Positions 7,088 to 39,610 of a DNA stretch of 64,000 bases are shown here, piece after piece. Every line of letters starts with the position of its first letter. Positions within the stretch are counted from its first letter, which is position 1. The notes under the pieces are model-generated. The model saw nothing but the letters and a program-made list of their open reading frames with translations, did no database searches and had not been told where the DNA came from. The translations under genes and the position numbers were made by a program. This DNA comes from a phage: sequence record PZ171032.1; one strand, 5' to 3'.

Positions 7088-7393
7088 ATGGCTAAATCTA
7101 AAGTTGAACTGTTCACCTCTCTTCCTTCTGACACTGCAGAGCGTGATCGCCTTCGCAAAACAATCGAAGAACTGGTGGAACTCCAACTTCAGATTAAAGA
7201 TCTGAAAGATGCCATTAAGGATATCATTCTCGTTGAGAAGCAGGATCATCTGTATTCTCCTAAATTCATCAAATCTTTGGTGGCTACAGAGTTTGATATC
7301 CGCTACGAAGCTGAAAAACGTCGCGCTAAGATTGAAGAAGAGGTTGAGCACATGTCTGAGGCAGACATTCTGTTCAAACGCTCTGTAGAATAA
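7088..7393 (+). CDS. hypothetical protein (charged, helical-looking)
   Basis: AAGGAGA RBS; charged helical composition. Confidence 0.6.
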   Translation: MAKSKVELFTSLPSDTAERDRLRKTIEELVELQLQIKDLKDAIKDIILVEKQDHLYSPKFIKSLVATEFDIRYEAEKRRAKIEEEVEHMSEADILFKRSVE

Positions 7394-8444: not shown

Positions 8445-8653
8445 TCAACACACATGCATCTGAAGAGATATCCGAAGGAGTGACCATATGTCCCTTGGCT
8501 GAGCTAGGGAAAGAGGAAAACTTCGATTCTGAAGATTCTCCATCTCCGTCCCAGGGAGACCCTGAGGCTGATGACCTAACGTGGGAGGATATCATAGCCA
8601 TCTGGTTCTCTATTATGCCTGAGCACGAAGAGTTCAGAGGTGGGAGACTATGA
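8441..8653 (+). CDS. hypothetical acidic protein
   Basis: ATGA coupling to upstream peptide; acidic. Confidence 0.5.
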   Translation: MINTHASEEISEGVTICPLAELGKEENFDSEDSPSPSQGDPEADDLTWEDIIAIWFSIMPEHEEFRGGRL

Positions 8654-8774
8654 AGCACCGAGCCCACACAGGTTCCTCATGCTTTAGCATGGCCTGAAGA
8701 GGCAAACGTGCATAATTCCTGTGCATTGGAACGTATAAAACCCTGTTCACACTCTCATTTCCAGAGGAGATTTC

Positions 8775-8990
8775 ATGAAAATAGAAATATTTGGTGGGGC
8801 TGACAACACTCGTGGCCTGATTTACCTTGAATTCGATGAATCATACCTGCCAGAGGTGTTAAATATGGACTCTGTTGCTGAGGCTTTGGGGGTAAGTCCT
8901 AAAGAACTCCACTCTTGTGCTGAGATCGATGGTTGGGAAGAGACCATGAACATTGATTTCAGTGAAGTAGGTGATGAACCGCTGGACTGA
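8775..8990 (+). CDS. hypothetical protein
   Basis: GAGGAG RBS upstream of ATG. Confidence 0.55.
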   Translation: MKIEIFGGADNTRGLIYLEFDESYLPEVLNMDSVAEALGVSPKELHSCAEIDGWEETMNIDFSEVGDEPLD

Positions 8991-10489
8991 CACACAATAT
9001 TAGATGTCCGGCTAAAGTGCTGGAAGCACCTATAGCATATCTTTCAACTAAATTTCCTACCACCACAATCACTTACCTCCCACACATGACTGTTTGCTTG
9101 TTTAGTGAGCAGTCATGCCTTGACATTCTTGCCTATCCTGATAAAATTAAGTTCTTCTCTTTTCTTTTACCGAGTAATTCGGGTTTTCTGTTCTCTTCGG
9201 TTTGAAGGGGTATGGAGATACACCTGAGTGAACAGGGTGAACAACCGAACATTCGGCTATGGCATTAGCATGGCGAAGCGAACGGGTGACGAAAGAGGGG
9301 CCGGAGGACACCAGTCACTGCCATATGATATATGGGTGATAACCTGAAGAGTCTGAATAAGTGTTTAAGTACCAGTCAGAGGAAAAGGTGAATGGTAGCC
9401 GAAGGGGGAGGGGGGGTTTCTTGTATCTTTAATTTGTATATTATGTATACACTTGTAAACCAATTTCATCTGAATCTGTTTACCATACAAAGTGGATTGA
9501 GACAAATATTACCTATTAAACTTGAATTATTTATAGAAAATACCACAACACACCTTAAGTCTTTGATTTTACACATAAATCCTACAGATATTCAACCTCC
9601 ATATTTAACATACTTGTAACATATCCTATACCACACCTGCCTGATCAATTTCCCCAACTACATCCTCTATATTTTACCTGCCTGTACTACCCCTGCCCCG
9701 CCGGGAGTCCCGTCATATCTGGCTTTCCAGCAAATATCCCACCAACAAATATCATTGCCTGAAGAGGGTTTCATCCCATAATACATGCCTTATCTGAAGA
9801 GCGCTTCATACACCACGTAAATTTTTTAATTGACCCCTCCCCGCCGCCGGAGAGGTTGGCTTTTCCCACACAGACCTGAAGAGTCAGCCAGAAATATCTG
9901 AATAGGCCCAATTCTACCACGATTTTGACCTGACCTACAGGGAGGCCCGAAGGGTCTAGCTTTCAGCTAGAGTCCTTGCAGGACCTACAGGAGTGCTGCC
10001 AGGCGGACGGAATGGGAATACTTCTCATTTTTATAATAATTCTCAAATATCGAGGCAGTGAGGCAAATTAATAGGTGAGGCCGTTCACACAGTGGCACAA
10101 CATTTGCAACCTATCTTGTGTGGGGGAATGATAATACCTATCATTGTGAGAACCATTATCATTACGGGCAATTTAACATAATACCCATTATGCGCACCAC
10201 TGGCGATACATACAGGGATTGATAACATGAGTTACAGTTTACGCATATAACAATTATATTTCTTATCATTTGTGTGGGATATAGTTAGCAGCCAATAGAT
10301 TAGATATTGACCTGCATACTTCCAACCGTCTAGACGTCTAAACGCCCACACACCAAGGATTATACATACACTCCTGAATGTAAACAGGGCCGCAAAAATG
10401 CTACCATACAAGCTTGTAAATTTTTCATGCAGCACTTGACAAAGAGGAGAAAAACTTGTCTGACATAATGTGACCTAACTGACACAACA

Positions 10490-10590
10490 TGACACTTTTA
10501 CACACCTATTAGTTTACACACTGGATTGTTTACATTCCTGATTGTTCACATGCTAACCATTTACATGATTGACTGTTTACACACCGATAA
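10490..10590. repeat. iteron-like array of short direct repeats (TTTACACAC / TTTACAT, about 15-bp period)
   Basis: at least six copies of TTTACA(C/T) words spaced about 14-16 bp apart within 100 bp of ORF-free DNA. Confidence 0.5.
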
Positions 10591-10593
10591 TCA

Positions 10594-10613
10594 GCCATGC
10601 CATTCGTTTGCAT
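10594..10613. repeat. 20-bp direct repeat GCCATGCCATTCGTTTGCAT, copy 1
   Basis: exact 20-mer repeated at about 10825-10844. Confidence 0.6.
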
Positions 10614-10656
10614 GACAATAATTATACATGACAATAATCGCACTGATTATAATTAG

Positions 10657-10722
10657 CATGACATAATATAAAAGCAGGGCAACTATTAGCAGATCTATAG
10701 TTGCCCTGCTTGTTATGTCATG
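10657..10722. repeat. long imperfect palindrome (perfect 15-bp arms AAGCAGGGCAACTAT / ATAGTTGCCCTGCTT, extended by CATGACATAA arms)
   Basis: reverse-complementary arms around a 9-nt centre, seen directly in the sequence. Confidence 0.6.
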
Positions 10723-10824
10723 ATTAACTAAATACAAGGCAACTATGATCTGATTAATAGTTTGCAGACAAACTATCACGGGGGTGATGGTTACTGCTTT
10801 TATATTATGTCGCGACTCCGTCGC

Positions 10825-10844
10825 GCCATGCCATTCGTTTGCAT
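10825..10844. repeat. 20-bp direct repeat GCCATGCCATTCGTTTGCAT, copy 2
   Basis: exact copy of 10594-10613; preceded by palindromic GTCGCGAC. Confidence 0.6.
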
Positions 10845-11461
10845 AGTTGCCTTATTGTTACAGGTAAAATAATTACATTATTAATTATTTCTTATCTTTC
10901 TCTTAGTCATCTAATGATTCCAGTCAGTATAGTAATGTACAGTAAACATTAGACGACTAAATATTTCTATGCTTATGATAACTTGCCGTGACAATTTCGG
11001 ACTGTTTACGAAAAATGTTGACACCTGGGCGGGTTTATGTTATGCAGTTTACACGAATAATTATTTCATACAGGTATTGACTATTCCGTTATTCTGTGGT
11101 TGGAATAAATACTTTGCAGGCTATAGAATGGTGTGCGTACGTGAATTCTAAGATCTGGCGGCTATAGTTACACCCGATTTTTCACGTAGAACACGCTTTT
11201 TGGTTTGTGTAAGTGTATGACTTATAAAGATTTTTAGTTGTTGACAGGATATTGAAGATGTGCATCAGGTTAAATTTTGTGCAATAGCTGCAGTACGTGC
11301 ATTTTTGGAAGGAAAAACGTGTAAAAATGGTCCTGCTACCACATAATGAAAGATTATGCAATAGCTATTTTATATGTATATTTGTACAGTGTGTGGGATT
11401 GATGGCTCGTCAATTATTCCACTTGCTGGGTGGGGCCGTTTGTGGTAGGAGGAGAGCAGAC

Positions 11462-11486
11462 AAAAAGAAAGGGGCCTAAGCCCCTT
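11462..11486 (-). terminator. rho-independent terminator (minus strand)
   Basis: minus-strand hairpin AGGGGC-TTAG-GCCCCT followed by a T-run, just past the stop of gene ending at 11506. Confidence 0.5.
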
Positions 11487-11505
11487 GATAATGTAAATTG
11501 TTGTA

Positions 11506-11770
11506 TTATTTGTTACTCATCCAGTTTTCCCAAGCTGCCTGATAATCTGCCTCACTGCGGCGGATCTCTTCTTGTTCTTCAAGCCGGATCTCTTCTTCCA
11601 GGTACCCCAAGATATCGGCTTTTTTTGGTCTGGCGTAACATCCAATCATCTTTTTTACGGGTAAAGATCTTATATGCTTTCTCGCAAACCTCTTTTTTGC
11701 TACCTTTTTGGACTTCAAGAACTTTGTAGGCCATGTACTGAACTAGTTTGAGCTGATCAAGACGTTTCAT
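11506..11770 (-). CDS. hypothetical protein, apparently interrupted by a frameshift at a homopolymeric A tract
   Basis: two overlapping track ORFs (11579-11770 and 11506-11718) in different frames; frame switch coincides with an A7 run; fused product would be about 88 aa. Confidence 0.4.
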
Positions 11771-11833
11771 GATGTTTACCTCTTTATGGGGTTCTGGTTT
11801 GGTGTGGGCCTTTTGGCCCGTGTCATTATCTTA

Positions 11834-12106
11834 TTACTTACGGCGGCAAAATTCAAGTGTTTTTAATTGATAATCTTCCTCAGCTTGGAGTACAACCGCC
11901 TCGATCATTTCGTTGGCATTGGTGAAGCCATACCCTTGAGCGAACTCATCCGCGCCACCTTCGTGATCATGTTCTGCGTTCATCGCTTCCACAAAATGGA
12001 ATTCAAGATTGTTGAGGTAAGGGCTTGATGTTCCGTCCTCTTTTTCGATGAGATCCCAGATAGCATTAAAACGTGATTCGACTTCTTGATTAATCCAGCT
12101 TGACAT
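11834..12106 (-). CDS. hypothetical acidic protein
   Basis: ORF with compact spacing; no motif. Confidence 0.6.
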   Translation of the reverse strand: MSSWINQEVESRFNAIWDLIEKEDGTSSPYLNNLEFHFVEAMNAEHDHEGGADEFAQGYGFTNANEMIEAVVLQAEEDYQLKTLEFCRRK

Positions 12107-37627: not shown

Positions 37628-39610
37628 TTATTTGATGTTATTCTTTGTATCGATCAGTTCACGGTATTCAATCATAGCAGGAGTGTCCCAATATTTCAAG
37701 CCCACATGCTTCAAAAGTGGATATTTCTTTTCCAATCTTGCAATATAGGCCTTTCCGCACTTAACCCGGTTGGCGATTAAGATTTTGGCACGATGATTTA
37801 GCTCACTGTGCTTCCACGCGGTGTTACCTTCCCACTTGTGGAAATGTGGCCGATAATTTCCAAAATCCTGCATGGGGATAATTTTCCCTAATTGTCTATA
37901 CAGGCTGTCATATGAAGTTTCATTTGCTGCGCGAGTCAGTAAGAATTTCCAGGCGTCCTCTTTCAACAAATGTTCCACATTTTTCTCTGTAACATACTGG
38001 CAATCAGGATCAGTCCAAAGCAGACGGGATTCTGATACCAGGTACAGGTCTTCCCCTTCAGGAATCTGGAGTGCCGCACGCACACGGTCATAATTTTGCT
38101 GGTAGATGTTACTCAGCTGTCCCAGCCAACAACTTCCACGTTGGATATCGCCCTCATAAGGAATGCAGTGCTTAATCTTCTTGAACTCTGCCTTAGTAAT
38201 ACGTTCACGACGGAAGTAACCATCCTTCTCAAGCTTTTTAACCCAATAACCTGGCTCGTAATGAGTTTTTGTTTCACCTTTCTTCGCAGGTCGGCGAGGG
38301 AGCTCTGATAACAATTTGACCGTATCTGCAAAGAACGGGTGGTGTGCCGCTTCTTTAAACTCTTCCACCAAATCCGTGTTACGGCAATAGAAAACGTTGC
38401 GTCCGGTGATCTCGCTTAAGTAGTTACACTTATTTCGGTTATATTTGCCGTCTCCGTCGTTAAACACTAAGTAGACCCCTCGTAAGAACTCCGACTTTCC
38501 GTAGCAGGCGTAACCTATGCGGCCTTTATTTAAGCCGCCAGCGAAGATCTCACAATCTCCCAAACTTCCTAGTCCTGTCTCTTCCCATCGGTCCCACATA
38601 AAATTCTTACCGAAGATGTGCCCGAACACTCCACTGTTCTTCATCATCTCACGTGCTTCTGAGGATGTTTTTGCTGTCTCCAATTCCGCAACAACTTCTG
38701 CCCCACGAAGACGGATACCCTCTTTGACAAAAGCCTCCAACCGCTCTTGGAATCCACCATCGTCGTGCCCCTCTATGGTCCATTCGCGCCCAGGGTTAAT
38801 ATTGCAATCCCCAATAGGGATCTCTACACAGATTGCAGGGTAGTCTGTCAATGTTTCCAGAAACTTAGAGCGGTAAGGTTGGTGTCCCATCACCACACGG
38901 CTCTCATCAGAGCTGGTATAACCTTTCAGGATAGTCATTTTCCAACCATCTTTCTCGTAGCGATACTGCGCCTCAACCTTGTCACCTTCCAGCATCTTAC
39001 TGGTCATAGGGTCGGTAACGGTAAACGGAAACTTTGCATAGCGTAGGCATGACGCAATAGCAGTGCGATATTTCAGAATATGCTCTTTCTTAACATGGAA
39101 CTGAACTTTTACCCCGTTGTGCTCTTCAGTCTTTCGCTCGCGGATCTTGGTAACGTTTGGGATACCCTGATCCAAGAACAATAGATATGTGCTTTCAACA
39201 CCATTGTGTACACTGATCACATCGAAAGTGTCCACCATGCTGAACGGGGCCTTTGAACCAACACCTTTATTACCCACCAGAGCGTTGCTGTTGCGCTTGG
39301 TTGACTCTCCGAGGTTCATGAAAGTGTTGCGGACCATCTCTTCTGACATGCCTAATCCAACGTCCTGCACAAAGAAGTATGGTTCAAGGTCTGTAGGAGA
39401 GTGAATGATGATCGGTACATCGCCCCGTCCAGACTCAACATGAGAGTCCACAGCATTGAAGATTGGTTCACGGCAGCTTGCCAGCACCTTATCTTCGTAA
39501 ATCCCTTTAATGATTAGCCCAAAAGTCTCTTTGTTCAGAGAAATTGAGCCCCTGGTGACCTCCATATTTCCAGTTAGCACTGCTTTAGTTTCATTACTGT
39601 TTACAATCAT
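37628..39610 (-). CDS. GHKL-superfamily ATPase (Bergerat fold; Hsp90/MORC-like N-terminal domain) with about 450-aa C-terminal region of unknown function
   Basis: N-box EPIFNAVDSH, G1-box VQDVGLGM, G2-box GNKGVGSKAPF in correct order and spacing within the first about 130 aa. Confidence 0.6.
   Translation of the reverse strand: MIVNSNETKAVLTGNMEVTRGSISLNKETFGLIIKGIYEDKVLASCREPIFNAVDSHVESGRGDVPIIIHSPTDLEPYFFVQDVGLGMSEEMVRNTFMNLGESTKRNSNALVGNKGVGSKAPFSMVDTFDVISVHNGVESTYLLFLDQGIPNVTKIRERKTEEHNGVKVQFHVKKEHILKYRTAIASCLRYAKFPFTVTDPMTSKMLEGDKVEAQYRYEKDGWKMTILKGYTSSDESRVVMGHQPYRSKFLETLTDYPAICVEIPIGDCNINPGREWTIEGHDDGGFQERLEAFVKEGIRLRGAEVVAELETAKTSSEAREMMKNSGVFGHIFGKNFMWDRWEETGLGSLGDCEIFAGGLNKGRIGYACYGKSEFLRGVYLVFNDGDGKYNRNKCNYLSEITGRNVFYCRNTDLVEEFKEAAHHPFFADTVKLLSELPRRPAKKGETKTHYEPGYWVKKLEKDGYFRRERITKAEFKKIKHCIPYEGDIQRGSCWLGQLSNIYQQNYDRVRAALQIPEGEDLYLVSESRLLWTDPDCQYVTEKNVEHLLKEDAWKFLLTRAANETSYDSLYRQLGKIIPMQDFGNYRPHFHKWEGNTAWKHSELNHRAKILIANRVKCGKAYIARLEKKYPLLKHVGLKYWDTPAMIEYRELIDTKNNIK

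Follow-up and report, generated by a model that had tools for sequence, protein, structure and literature searches.

Packaging of phage T7 DNA takes place from concatemers and involves duplication of the terminal repeat, and this is the model borrowed here. Terminase sites made of phased short repeats are known from other phages, for example, the R-sites of lambda cosB, the hexamers of P1 pac, where Dam (GATC) sites are also clustered, and pacL/pacR of SPP1. For the rV5-like phages (Vequintavirus), terminal redundancies of 458 bp have been reported for HdK5 and EdH4 in a PacBio-based study, in which genomes were linearised at the positions where the majority of reads broke off (Korf et al., 2019; PMC6563267). 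In addition, the record of Gotham (MT682716) carries identical 459-bp repeat_regions annotated at both ends. It should be noted that the HdK5/EdH4 paper and the records give only the length or the coordinates of the repeat, and that in the rV5 paper (2013), which took the genome to be circularly permuted, the region appears as a 'non-coding' box with no explanation. The searchable literature yielded no account of the flanking arrays, edge motifs or conserved blocks, nor any transcriptome, origin mapping or packaging-site study of an rV5-like phage. In Mydovirus, KPP-1 possesses a 514-bp, T7-type repeat identified from coverage and with PhageTerm; this repeat is also annotated in phage DP, and the KP12 record begins at its left edge.

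Here, we analyzed a gap between genes in a stretch of 64 000 nucleotides (PZ171032.1; the window) from a Vequintavirus, that is, an rV5-like E. coli phage and myovirus. It is highly probable that the gap is the Vequintavirus chromosome-end region in joined (concatemer or assembly) form, in the order right arm, 459-bp direct terminal repeat (DTR), left arm. Such a region is an ordinary, little-described packaging or end region and not a new kind of element: the terminal redundancy of HdK5/EdH4 and the repeat of Gotham are the same, already known element, 95% identical and with the same ORF-free flanks and the same arrays. The features of the region are collected in Table 1.

Table 1. Features of the chromosome-end region, in window coordinates (a caret marks a chromosome end)
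Feature	Position	Strand	Basis
Unique DNA of right chromosome arm, ORF-free	8991-10001		No ORF passes conservation/codon-position test
Near-invariant non-coding block	9050-9420	+	96-99% identity in all 118 records holding the block
Sigma-70-like promoter (TTGACA, 16-nt spacer, TAAAAT, TG upstream), towards right chromosome end	9120-9147	+	Scan
Four CTGAAGAG words, at 9344, 9759, 9794 and 9876	9344-9883	+	Word count
G5AG7 run ending the conserved block	9404-9416	+	Read from sequence
AT-rich, G-poor stretch (GC 28%, G 8%)	9421-9650		Composition
C-rich unit CCCCTGCCCCGCCGGGAG, copy 1	9690-9707	+	Conserved in 13 genomes
C-rich unit CCCCTCCCCGCCGCCGGAG, copy 2	9834-9852	+	Partly variable; adjacent insertions in some relatives
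Hypervariable indel zone directly outside left repeat edge, bounded by GACCTACAGG direct repeats	9900-9985		Conservation 0.43-0.58
Left-end motif GCTGCCA^GGCGGACGG; chromosome start, G 10002	9995-10010		Aligned with Mydovirus left end
DTR, 459 bp, one copy here (concatemer-junction form)	10002-10460		Mapped ends of relatives
27-bp box ATTTAACATAATACCCATTATGCGCAC inside repeat; core palindrome CATAAT-N4-ATTATG	10171-10197		Cross-genus conservation
Right-end motif CTTGACAAAGAGGAGAAAAACTTGTC^; chromosome end, C 10460	10435-10460		Aligned with KPP-1 and DP
Unique DNA of left chromosome arm, ORF-free	10461-11468		End-opened records and ORF test
Four TGAC(A/C)Y words, about one helical turn (~10 bp) apart, at 10461, 10471, 10480 and 10490	10461-10495	+	Shuffle test
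Six (T/A)GTT(T/C)ACA-like units, 15-16 bp spacing	10497-10582	+	Pattern and shuffle test
20-bp exact direct repeat, copy 1	10594-10613	+	Sequence comparison
66-bp palindrome; perfect 15-nt inner arms (10672-10686/10697-10711), 10-nt outer arms	10657-10722		Repeat search and folding
Third arm, pairing with 10660-10677 (18 nt, perfect)	10794-10811		Inverted-repeat search
20-bp exact direct repeat, copy 2	10825-10844	+	Sequence comparison
Intrinsic-terminator-like hairpin closing the minus-strand gene array	11469-11486	-	Scan and folding

Gene content and terminal repeat of the gap

The last plus-strand gene upstream of the gap ends at 8990 and the first gene of the minus-strand array stops at 11506; the genes flanking the gap are small. 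A preliminary description, made from the letters of the window, had seen no convincing ORF in between, and this was borne out by comparison with 12 relatives, which no gene within 8991-11468 withstood. For the coding test, 26 ORFs of 30-75 aa inside the gap were followed on a 13-genome alignment, with a third-codon-position excess of variable columns taken as the signal. None of the 26 had such an excess (for example, 12/10/13 and 23/20/22), and for 16 of them the frame was open in at most 8 of the 12 relatives; the ORFs left unbroken in most or all relatives belong to near-invariant stretches, in which the codon-position test has little power. The control gene at 8775-8990, intact in all 12 genomes and with codon-position counts of 2/2/19, behaved as coding. 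Hidden genes were rejected on the basis of the missing excess and the breakage of most ORFs in several relatives. Some pipelines have annotated many small ORFs in the homologous region, as in Mangalyan, PMBT16 and NHEP1. Real genes at this position, together with loss of the repeats, were looked for in relatives, which proved to have no such genes and a conserved architecture. A search of Rfam with a limit of E <= 1 returned nothing for 8500-12000, and over the whole window no family passed the gathering threshold; neither tRNAs nor host-derived DNA were found. The records of Gotham, HdK5, Alma and Murica mark the hairpin closing the minus-strand array as a terminator. The lack of genes would be explained by cis-acting signals filling the region, together with the stop signals of the two gene arrays, which are transcribed towards the ends.

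The region is common to about 100 Vequintavirus genomes, in which it is present at full length with 87-95% identity. Both ends of HdK5 are identical over 459 bp, and the repeats of Gotham and HdK5 correspond to window 10002-10460, with 95.4-95.5% identity. The edges of this repeat are where seven records begin or finish. Gotham, HdK5, bov11CS3 and bov25_3 start at the position of window 10002, and ECP2309 and EcoIv14a_Aya stop at 10460. The segment is found twice in each of the latter two, in ECP2309 at both ends. In records with mapped ends, the sequence runs from 8990 to 10460 and then stops, so that in the virion the right-arm DNA adjoins the inner side of the right-hand repeat copy. The arm order of the window, with a single repeat copy between right and left arm, matches the arm sequences of the end-opened records. 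The ends of the window phage were assigned by homology, at 95% identity, to the records of relatives; through Gotham, HdK5 and ECP2309 as proxies, the same sequence is predicted at both ends of the packaged molecule. Conservation shifted at both repeat edges, with scores of 0.89-0.97 in the repeat vs 0.43-0.78 in the flanks. In the indel zone outside the left edge, ~50 bp are missing in 7 of the 12 relatives and shorter deletions occur in another 3. The terminase genes fall outside the window.

Three functions had been proposed at first for the region, namely a replication origin, a packaging site or a cluster of regulator-binding sites. The packaging site gained support: in close relatives the physical chromosome ends correspond to 10002 and 10460, both within the region, and a periodic array begins at the first base past the right edge of the repeat. 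The 459-bp repeat in the middle of the region had not been noticed at that stage.

Knowledge of the ends has practical consequences. Among the ~120 public Vequintavirus genomes, most were deposited arbitrarily opened as "circularly permuted", and the gap was sometimes filled with a dozen spurious small genes; with true ends at 10002 and 10460, genomes could be oriented consistently and false gene calls removed. Against pathogenic E. coli, O157 included, rV5-like phages are frequent candidates, and in engineered or therapeutic members the cis-acting end signals must stay intact.

Conservation of the end motifs in other genera

No nucleotide homology of the region was detected by blastn outside the genus, where only motif-level, collinear matches appeared at sensitive settings. 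The left end of Mydovirus, which was mapped independently (TGCTA^GACGGACAG), falls in the same alignment column as the left end in the window, and the left-end motif is also present at fixed spacing in Seunavirus and other contigs. At the other edge, the counterpart of the right-end motif in KPP-1 and DP is CTTGACAAGGAGAGAGAATTGTGTT^, which lies at their mapped right end and aligns with it. Between them lies the 27-bp box, which is conserved in Vequintavirus, Mydovirus, Seunavirus and an Av-05-sized contig, and which also occurs in two unrelated viral contigs (L025 and L033) whose proteins gave no informative family and whose region had no relative in the phage collection. The distance from this box to the right-end motif is 265-277 bp in all genera. 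Left motif, box and right motif keep a fixed spacing in at least five lineages; in Mydovirus, both end positions and their motifs occupy the same alignment columns, and Seunavirus has the same motifs and spacing. The general forms are YAG^RCGGAC on the left and CTTGACA-purines-TTGTC^ on the right.

The genomic setting is shared as well. In Mydovirus (KPP-1, DP and KP12), too, convergent gene arrays leave a gap with few ORFs that contains the repeat; in KPP-1 this gap is 1.8 kb long with only two small annotated ORFs, and PVP-SE1 (Seunavirus) has the same convergent gap, of 2.3 kb; left motif, 27-bp box and right motif are homologous to those of the window in both genera. On the other hand, the Mydovirus repeat measures 514 bp vs 459 bp, its left arm has TGATAA-N4-TTATCA palindromes in place of the arrays of the window, and its right-arm gap is much shorter (only 335 bp) and has no counterpart of the conserved block. 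The conserved edge motifs are most likely the recognition and cleavage sites of terminase, a prediction that yields candidate sites to be tested throughout the subfamily. A direct or inverted repeat common to both DTR edges, such that one site could serve both cuts, was looked for and none was seen.

Left-arm arrays, palindrome and end formation

Two arrays follow one another inside the left end. The first, of TGAC(A/C)Y words, has four copies in 40 bp, the highest count in the window and one that none of 200 shuffles attained; a comparable run is present in all aligned Vequintavirus genomes despite sequence divergence. This array was missing from the preliminary description, which had recorded the second one, of TTTACA(C/T) words, with a periodicity of about 15 bp. 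The latter is real: five exact plus-strand copies (10497, 10513, 10529, 10560 and 10576) and TTCACAT at 10545 are spaced by 16, 16, 16, 15 and 16 bp, and the six TYYACR in 100 bp are the maximum in 64 kb, with no shuffle of 200 reaching six. One inverted unit of this type lies inside the repeat (10378-10384). As counted with one search pattern, the number of TGTTYACA units varies from one to eight among aligned relatives, even between near-identical phages, and conservation in the region is lowest in this array (0.63-0.78). Both arrays are absent from Mydovirus and Seunavirus; being absent there and most variable within Vequintavirus, they therefore cannot be a universal terminase site. By analogy, they would be the counterpart of the CCTAAAG arrays beside the T7 repeat and would most likely provide an accessory platform for protein binding or DNA bending in end formation.

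Further into the left arm, the 20-bp direct repeat and the palindrome with perfect 15-nt arms described before were both confirmed, the former as exact and the latter as stably folding. As RNA, the palindrome reaches -37 to -38.5 kcal/mol (z = -7 to -8). The Alma and Murica records label it a minus-strand terminator, and its core (10658-10824) is at least 95% identical in most of the 118 records holding it. In minus-strand orientation, UUUUAUAUUAU comes after the inner stem, but its bases can also pair in the outer stem. The terminator consensus scan did not call the palindrome, because its loop exceeds the limit of the scan and its U-tract is interrupted. It is most likely a strong terminator that would keep leftward transcription out of the end. 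The palindrome also holds a pair of GGCAACTAT half-sites, which as an inverted pair are possible regulator-binding sites, the third function proposed at first. In FV3, which is viable, everything from copy 1 of the 20-bp repeat up to copy 2 is lost, including the palindrome module.

If end formation followed the T7 type, replication would yield head-to-tail concatemers, with a single repeat copy common to each two adjoining genomes. The sequences at the repeat edges would then be recognised by terminase, which would cut at 10001/10002 and 10460/10461, and DNA synthesis would duplicate the repeat so that both ends of each packaged molecule carry a copy. The cutting and duplication steps, the pairing of proteins with sites and the roles given to arrays and palindrome are drawn by analogy. 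In the T7 sequence we found the repeat at 1-160 and a CCTAAAG array at 175-340 with 13-bp spacing, with more copies left of the right repeat. Both phages thus have a short exact terminal repeat followed by a regular array of ~7-bp words inside the left arm, and promoters without coding purpose near the ends. However, there is no sequence similarity, the repeats differ in length (160 vs 459 bp), and T7 has arrays on both sides and words inside the repeat, whereas the window has arrays on one side and one inverted unit inside. T7 is transcribed one way by its own polymerase, whereas in the window two arrays transcribed by host polymerase converge on the ends; the window also differs in being gene-free over 2.5 kb. 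RNA polymerase pausing at the T7 concatemer junction is cited in PMC3276506. The TGACAY words (four copies, 9-10 bp apart) would resemble lambda cosB, P1 pac and SPP1 in that copies of a short word are placed to one side of the cut, roughly one helical turn apart, but those phages have cohesive ends or headful packaging and not exact terminal repeats. Only four GATC sites were counted by eye in the region.

Alternative readings of the conserved block and the arrays

The right arm contains a second element of high conservation. Identity in 9050-9420 (96-99%) compares with 87-95% for the whole region and is also above that of adjacent coding DNA; this near-invariance was overlooked at first reading. 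The promoter within the block is the best consensus match in the scan (11/12) and is unchanged in 11 of the 12 aligned relatives, and the ORF conservation test revealed no gene downstream of it. It might drive a G-rich RNA through 9150-9420, which could have a regulatory function or serve replication or end processing by forming a primer or R-loop. Such a protein-less transcription unit, compatible with the terminal-repeat explanation, would be comparable to T7 phiOR near the right end, and T7 indeed has phiOL at 405 and phiOR at 39229, close to its ends and with no requirement for a downstream gene. Composition is in line with this idea, since the non-template strand is rich in G (35% G and 16% C in 9190-9420) and runs through the G5AG7 tract into 230 bp of 28% GC; the tract is conserved with length variation of 1-2 G in either direction (G5AG6 in 9 of 12 aligned relatives). 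Nevertheless, we regard the transcript as rather unlikely: folding of the block showed no excess stability (z = -0.7, both strands), it had no match in Rfam or in E. coli, no clear terminator follows it, Mydovirus lacks a counterpart, and its conservation may alternatively reflect a DNA-level site or a recent sweep. Substitutions in the block are too few for a covariation test.

A related possibility is that the block is a transcription-driven element that could couple host RNA polymerase to replication initiation or to nearby end processing. By analogy with T7 phiOR/phiOL, it could then be an R-loop or primer-type origin; other comparisons of this kind are the T4 origins oriF and oriG and the mitochondrial G-run primer site. 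Along the same lines, the 27-bp box, which in the two unrelated contigs has TTTTACACA arrays and perfect DnaA boxes beside it, could be the mark of an origin that depends on a host factor and is common to several phage groups. This combined reading, of the block as a polymerase-coupled element and of the box as a shared origin mark, appears unlikely; still, the promoter and G-run offer a concrete place to look for the replication origin of these phages.

The left-arm arrays might also be initiator sites, bound by a phage-encoded protein or by host DnaA and opening nearby AT-rich DNA, with the palindrome and 20-bp repeats as auxiliary origin elements. They are regularly spaced direct repeats on the same strand, and one unit (TTTTACACA, 10496-10504) fits the DnaA-box consensus TTWTNCACA. 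Moreover, the rV5 paper saw a skew change in the region, and in the L025 and L033 contigs an ORF-free gap holds the 27-bp box together with TTTTACACA/TTATACACA arrays and perfect DnaA boxes. We nevertheless consider an iteron-type origin decidedly improbable. The array is where the region is least conserved, its unit number differs among relatives, it begins on the exact edge of the terminal repeat, and FV3 does without the palindrome module; the conserved core of the array, TGTTYAC, stops short of the CACA that defines a DnaA box, and its 7-8 bp core at 15-16 bp spacing is unlike iterons of 17-22 bp phased at 11 or 22 bp. The skew change was ascribed by the rV5 authors to the reversal of transcription direction. 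Among the large window ORFs scanned against PHROGs none was initiator-like; a T7-gp4-like primase-helicase and a PolA-type polymerase are present. In T7, a replisome of this type starts from promoters and not from iterons. The array region has 37% GC and is not notably AT-rich, the AT-rich stretch lying ~850 bp away across the repeat.

A cluster of DnaA boxes was considered separately and is not supported, with six strict consensus matches in the window vs 8.3 expected and two in the region. Neither does the array present at least three conserved, helix-phased direct repeats of ~17-22 bp. As for the origin proposed in the preliminary description, there was no positive evidence, given the variable array, the lack of DnaA-box enrichment and the viability of FV3.

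It is very improbable that the genome is circularly permuted and packaged by headful, the gap being a convergent-transcription buffer of terminators and decayed genes and the 459-bp repeat an assembly convention: the rV5 paper (2013) calls the genome circularly permuted, PhageTerm gave 'circular permutated' for four bov vequintaviruses (2021), the BpE1AUH paper (2026) reports headful packaging and small ORFs are annotated in the gap of Mangalyan, PMBT16 and NHEP1, but independent submitters put ends on the same bases, the current bov11CS3 record version begins exactly at the repeat edge, reads ended abruptly in the PacBio-based study (Korf et al., 2019), the independently found ends of another genus lie on homologous columns with conserved motifs, conservation breaks exactly at both repeat edges, the small ORFs fail the conservation test that the neighbouring gene passes, and blocks of 96-99% identity are not decaying DNA.

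The smaller repeats of the right arm reported earlier, that is, repeated CTGAAGAG words, two C-rich units and a G-run, could all be identified, the last as the G5AG7 tract; like the other repeats listed at first, they are non-random. The word CTGAAGAG has 10 copies in the window (2.5 +/- 1.4 expected), six of them on the plus strand within 8460-9883. Two of the four copies listed in Table 1 make a 12-nt repeat, ACCTGAAGAGTC, and a related word, GACCTGAAGTGTCAGCC, occurs in KPP-1 at the same relative place.

Gene content and chromosome ends

About 120 phage records matched the 2.5-kb region (8991-11468), nearly all from Escherichia phages of the genus Vequintavirus (rV5-like myoviruses), and around 100 of them spanned its full length with 87-95% identity. 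Its left neighbours are small plus-strand genes of unknown function, the last of which ends at 8990; on the right, the minus-strand array, whose first gene has its stop at 11506, runs on into replication genes (a PolA-type polymerase, a T7-gp4-like primase-helicase and a Dda-like helicase). In an alignment of the region across 13 genomes, we examined 26 ORFs of 30-75 aa, none of which had an excess of variation at the third codon position; 16 were broken in at least 4 of 12 relatives, and the others sit in near-invariant DNA. The neighbouring 71-codon gene (8775-8990), used as a control, passed: it is unbroken in 12 of 12 genomes, and its variable columns number 2, 2 and 19 by codon position. 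Thus, the earlier statement that no convincing gene lies between 8990 and 11506 was upheld. The gap is empty or almost empty in the curated records of rV5, LL12, FV3, naswa and HdK5, and some automated annotations put up to 16 small "hypothetical proteins" into it.

It should be noted that the first minus-strand gene (11506-11770), which Gotham and FV3 carry as an unbroken CDS of 264 bp, is frameshifted in the window by one additional A in an A-run (A7 versus A6); Alma has two compensating indels within this gene. At 9404-9416, the G-run exceeds that of 9 of 12 aligned relatives by one G. Since both runs are longer than those of relatives, homopolymer errors in the window assembly are possible.

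Chromosome ends of relatives map inside the gap. Four records (Gotham, HdK5, bov11CS3 and bov25_3) start at window 10002 and two (ECP2309 and EcoIv14a_Aya) stop at 10460, each carrying the repeat segment twice. Gotham has a 459-bp repeat_region annotated at each end, the first 459 bp of HdK5 are identical to its last 459 bp, and the end repeats of both align to 10002-10460 with 95.4-95.5% identity. Korf et al. (2019), who linearised genomes at points where most reads stopped abruptly, gave the terminal redundancies of HdK5 and EdH4 as 458 bp. Because the relatives' ends map here, the window shows the joined form, consisting of right arm, one repeat copy and left arm. On the basis of sequence comparison, the stretch is identified as a Vequintavirus terminal-repeat region (packaging and ends), and the end positions of this phage are assigned through homology to its relatives.

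The original rV5 paper drew the region as a "non-coding" box, remarked only on its skew change and handled the genome as circularly permuted. Permuted or headful genomes have been reported for vequintaviruses in three papers (rV5; bov phages; BpE1AUH); the current record version of bov11CS3, from one of these, opens at the repeat edge. The core fact, a terminal repeat in this region, is already in GenBank and one paper, so novelty is low. The fine anatomy, the end motifs' conservation between genera and an invariant promoter/G-run block are apparently undescribed in the searchable literature, and each of them is testable. In phage I29, a 584-bp tandem duplication matching 9635-10218 lies across the left edge of the repeat, and could be either an assembly artefact from chromosome ends or a real duplication.

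Features of the terminal-repeat region (window positions; a slash marks the end)
Feature	Position	Strand	Description
Right arm	8991-10001		unique DNA
Terminal repeat	10002-10460		459 bp
Left arm	10461-11468		unique DNA
Left-end motif			window GCTGCCA/GGCGGACGG vs KPP-1 GGTGCTA/GACGGACAG; cross-genus alignment
27-bp box	10171-10197		ATTTAACATAATACCCATTATGCGCAC; inside repeat; cross-genus alignment
Right-end motif			window CTTGACAAAGAGGAGAAAAACTTGTC/ vs CTTGACAAGGAGAGAGAATTGTGTT/; cross-genus alignment
Four TGAC(A/C)Y words	10461, 10471, 10480, 10490		begin at first base past repeat
Six TGTTYACA-like units	10497-10582		15-16 bp spacing; downstream of TGAC(A/C)Y words
Palindrome	10657-10722		66 bp
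Third arm	10794-10811		pairing possible with left arm of palindrome
Terminator-like hairpin	11486-11469	minus	after stop of first minus-strand gene

Repeat edges and conserved end motifs

Conservation is 0.89-0.97 in the repeat and shifts at both edges, with 0.43-0.58 in the 100 bp outside the left edge, where indels are bounded by GACCTACAGG repeats, and 0.63-0.78 in the 200 bp outside the right edge. The "iterons" of the preliminary description correspond to the variable zone on the right side of the repeat. All aligned vequintaviruses have the TGACAY-type run here, followed by one to eight TGTTYACA units (by our own pattern) with differing spacers. Both arrays are absent from Mydovirus and Seunavirus, whose left arms carry TGATAA-N4-TTATCA palindromes instead. 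The layout is clearly like that of T7, in which a 160-bp repeat is followed at 175-340 by roughly twelve copies of CCTAAAG, spaced 13 bp apart (checked in the T7 sequence), with further copies left of the right-hand repeat and promoters phiOL and phiOR near the two ends; there is no sequence similarity.

In the Klebsiella phage KPP-1 (Mydovirus), coverage and PhageTerm identified a repeat of 514 bp. It lies where two gene arrays converge, in a gap of 1.8 kb whose only annotated ORFs are two small ones. The phage DP record is annotated with this repeat at its end, and KP12 opens at its left edge; PVP-SE1 (Seunavirus) has a homologous convergent gap of 2.3 kb. No blastn similarity was observed between the window and the Mydovirus or Seunavirus gaps. 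A sensitive comparison gave three short collinear matches, which alignment identified as the two end motifs and the 27-bp box. The independently mapped ends of Vequintavirus and Mydovirus share alignment columns. A pattern scan found the box in 13 viral contigs; in Vequintavirinae-type contigs it is preceded by the left motif at a distance of 171-172 or 215-217 bp, and in all of these except L026 the right motif follows it at 265-266 or 277 bp. We regard the edge motifs as the strongest candidates for the sites that terminase recognises and cuts; the proteins that would bind them and the arrays are wholly inferred.

An overlapping palindrome, CGTCTAGACGTCTAAACG, containing AGACGTCT, is present inside the repeat at 10327-10344, and a similar sequence, TAGACGTCTAGACGTTTAG, occurs near the box in contig L027. 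In addition, a 101-aa protein of the PHROG 'transcriptional regulator' family (7088-7393, plus strand), named double-stranded DNA-binding protein in some relatives' annotation, is 98-100% identical throughout Vequintavirus, with homologues in Mydovirus, Seunavirus and Certrevirus (42-60% identity). Its place beside the end region is not conserved: in KPP-1, 35 kb separate its gene from the terminal repeat.

Near-invariant block, palindrome module and the origin question

The preliminary description had called the architecture of the gap typical of a replication origin, a packaging site or a cluster of regulator-binding sites. The packaging reading is supported by the relatives' ends mapping inside it; for a replication origin in the region, sequence comparison gave no positive evidence. 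The block at 9050-9420, which all 118 records containing it share at 96-99% identity and which is more conserved than neighbouring coding DNA, is a possible promoter-driven origin or end-processing element. It holds the region's best sigma-70-like promoter (TTGACA-16-TAAAAT, 11/12, TG upstream), oriented towards the right end and followed by a 35% G/16% C stretch up to G5AG7, beyond which lie 230 bp of 28% GC. The ORF test on the 13-genome alignment found no gene downstream of this promoter, and the block showed no excess RNA folding stability, Rfam family, similarity to E. coli or, by sensitive comparison, counterpart in Mydovirus.

Strict DnaA boxes are not enriched (two in the region), and the change in skew falls where transcription switches direction. 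The remaining origin lead, a weak one, comes from two viral contigs unrelated to Vequintavirinae (L025; L033, 3459-3860), where an ORF-free gap of 1.3 kb has the 27-bp box in three copies next to perfect DnaA boxes (GTTATCCACAGCTTATCCACA) and TTTTACACA/TTATACACA arrays. Searching the phage collection with this box region gave no match, and the proteins encoded beside it belong to no informative family. The "iteron" array does not qualify as iterons by the usual criteria, and an iteron-type origin is unlikely.

The TTTACAY array, 20-bp direct repeat, 66-bp palindrome, CTGAAGAG words, two C-rich units and G-run were all located as described earlier, and these repeat features, where tested, were far above chance. 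The two 20-bp repeats bracket 231 bp comprising the palindrome, its third arm and four exact GGCAACTAT half-sites arranged as inverted pairs. The palindrome forms an extremely stable hairpin (-37 to -38.5 kcal/mol, z = -7 to -8), has a U-rich run after its inner stem on the minus strand and is annotated as a terminator in the Alma and Murica records. The module is kept in 118 of 122 records, its core mostly at 95% identity or higher, yet FV3 has lost all of it by a clean 231-bp deletion (10594-10824, first 20-mer up to the second). Thus, the module is conserved yet dispensable, which counts against its being the sole origin or packaging site.

Just ahead of the palindrome, at about 10651, 6 of 12 aligned relatives (rV5, LL12, Murica, C9, PMBT16 and A51.2) have a 28-30 bp insertion (CCAGGTGACCTTTGGTCACCCCTTCGGGTG) composed of two small GC-rich hairpins. 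Two more plus-strand CTGAAGAG words lie upstream of the gap (8460-8467 and 8694-8701), one inside a predicted ORF and one intergenic in the plus-strand gene array; with six same-strand copies within 1.4 kb, CTGAAGAG is possibly a signal that belongs to the plus-strand transcription unit and not to the end region.
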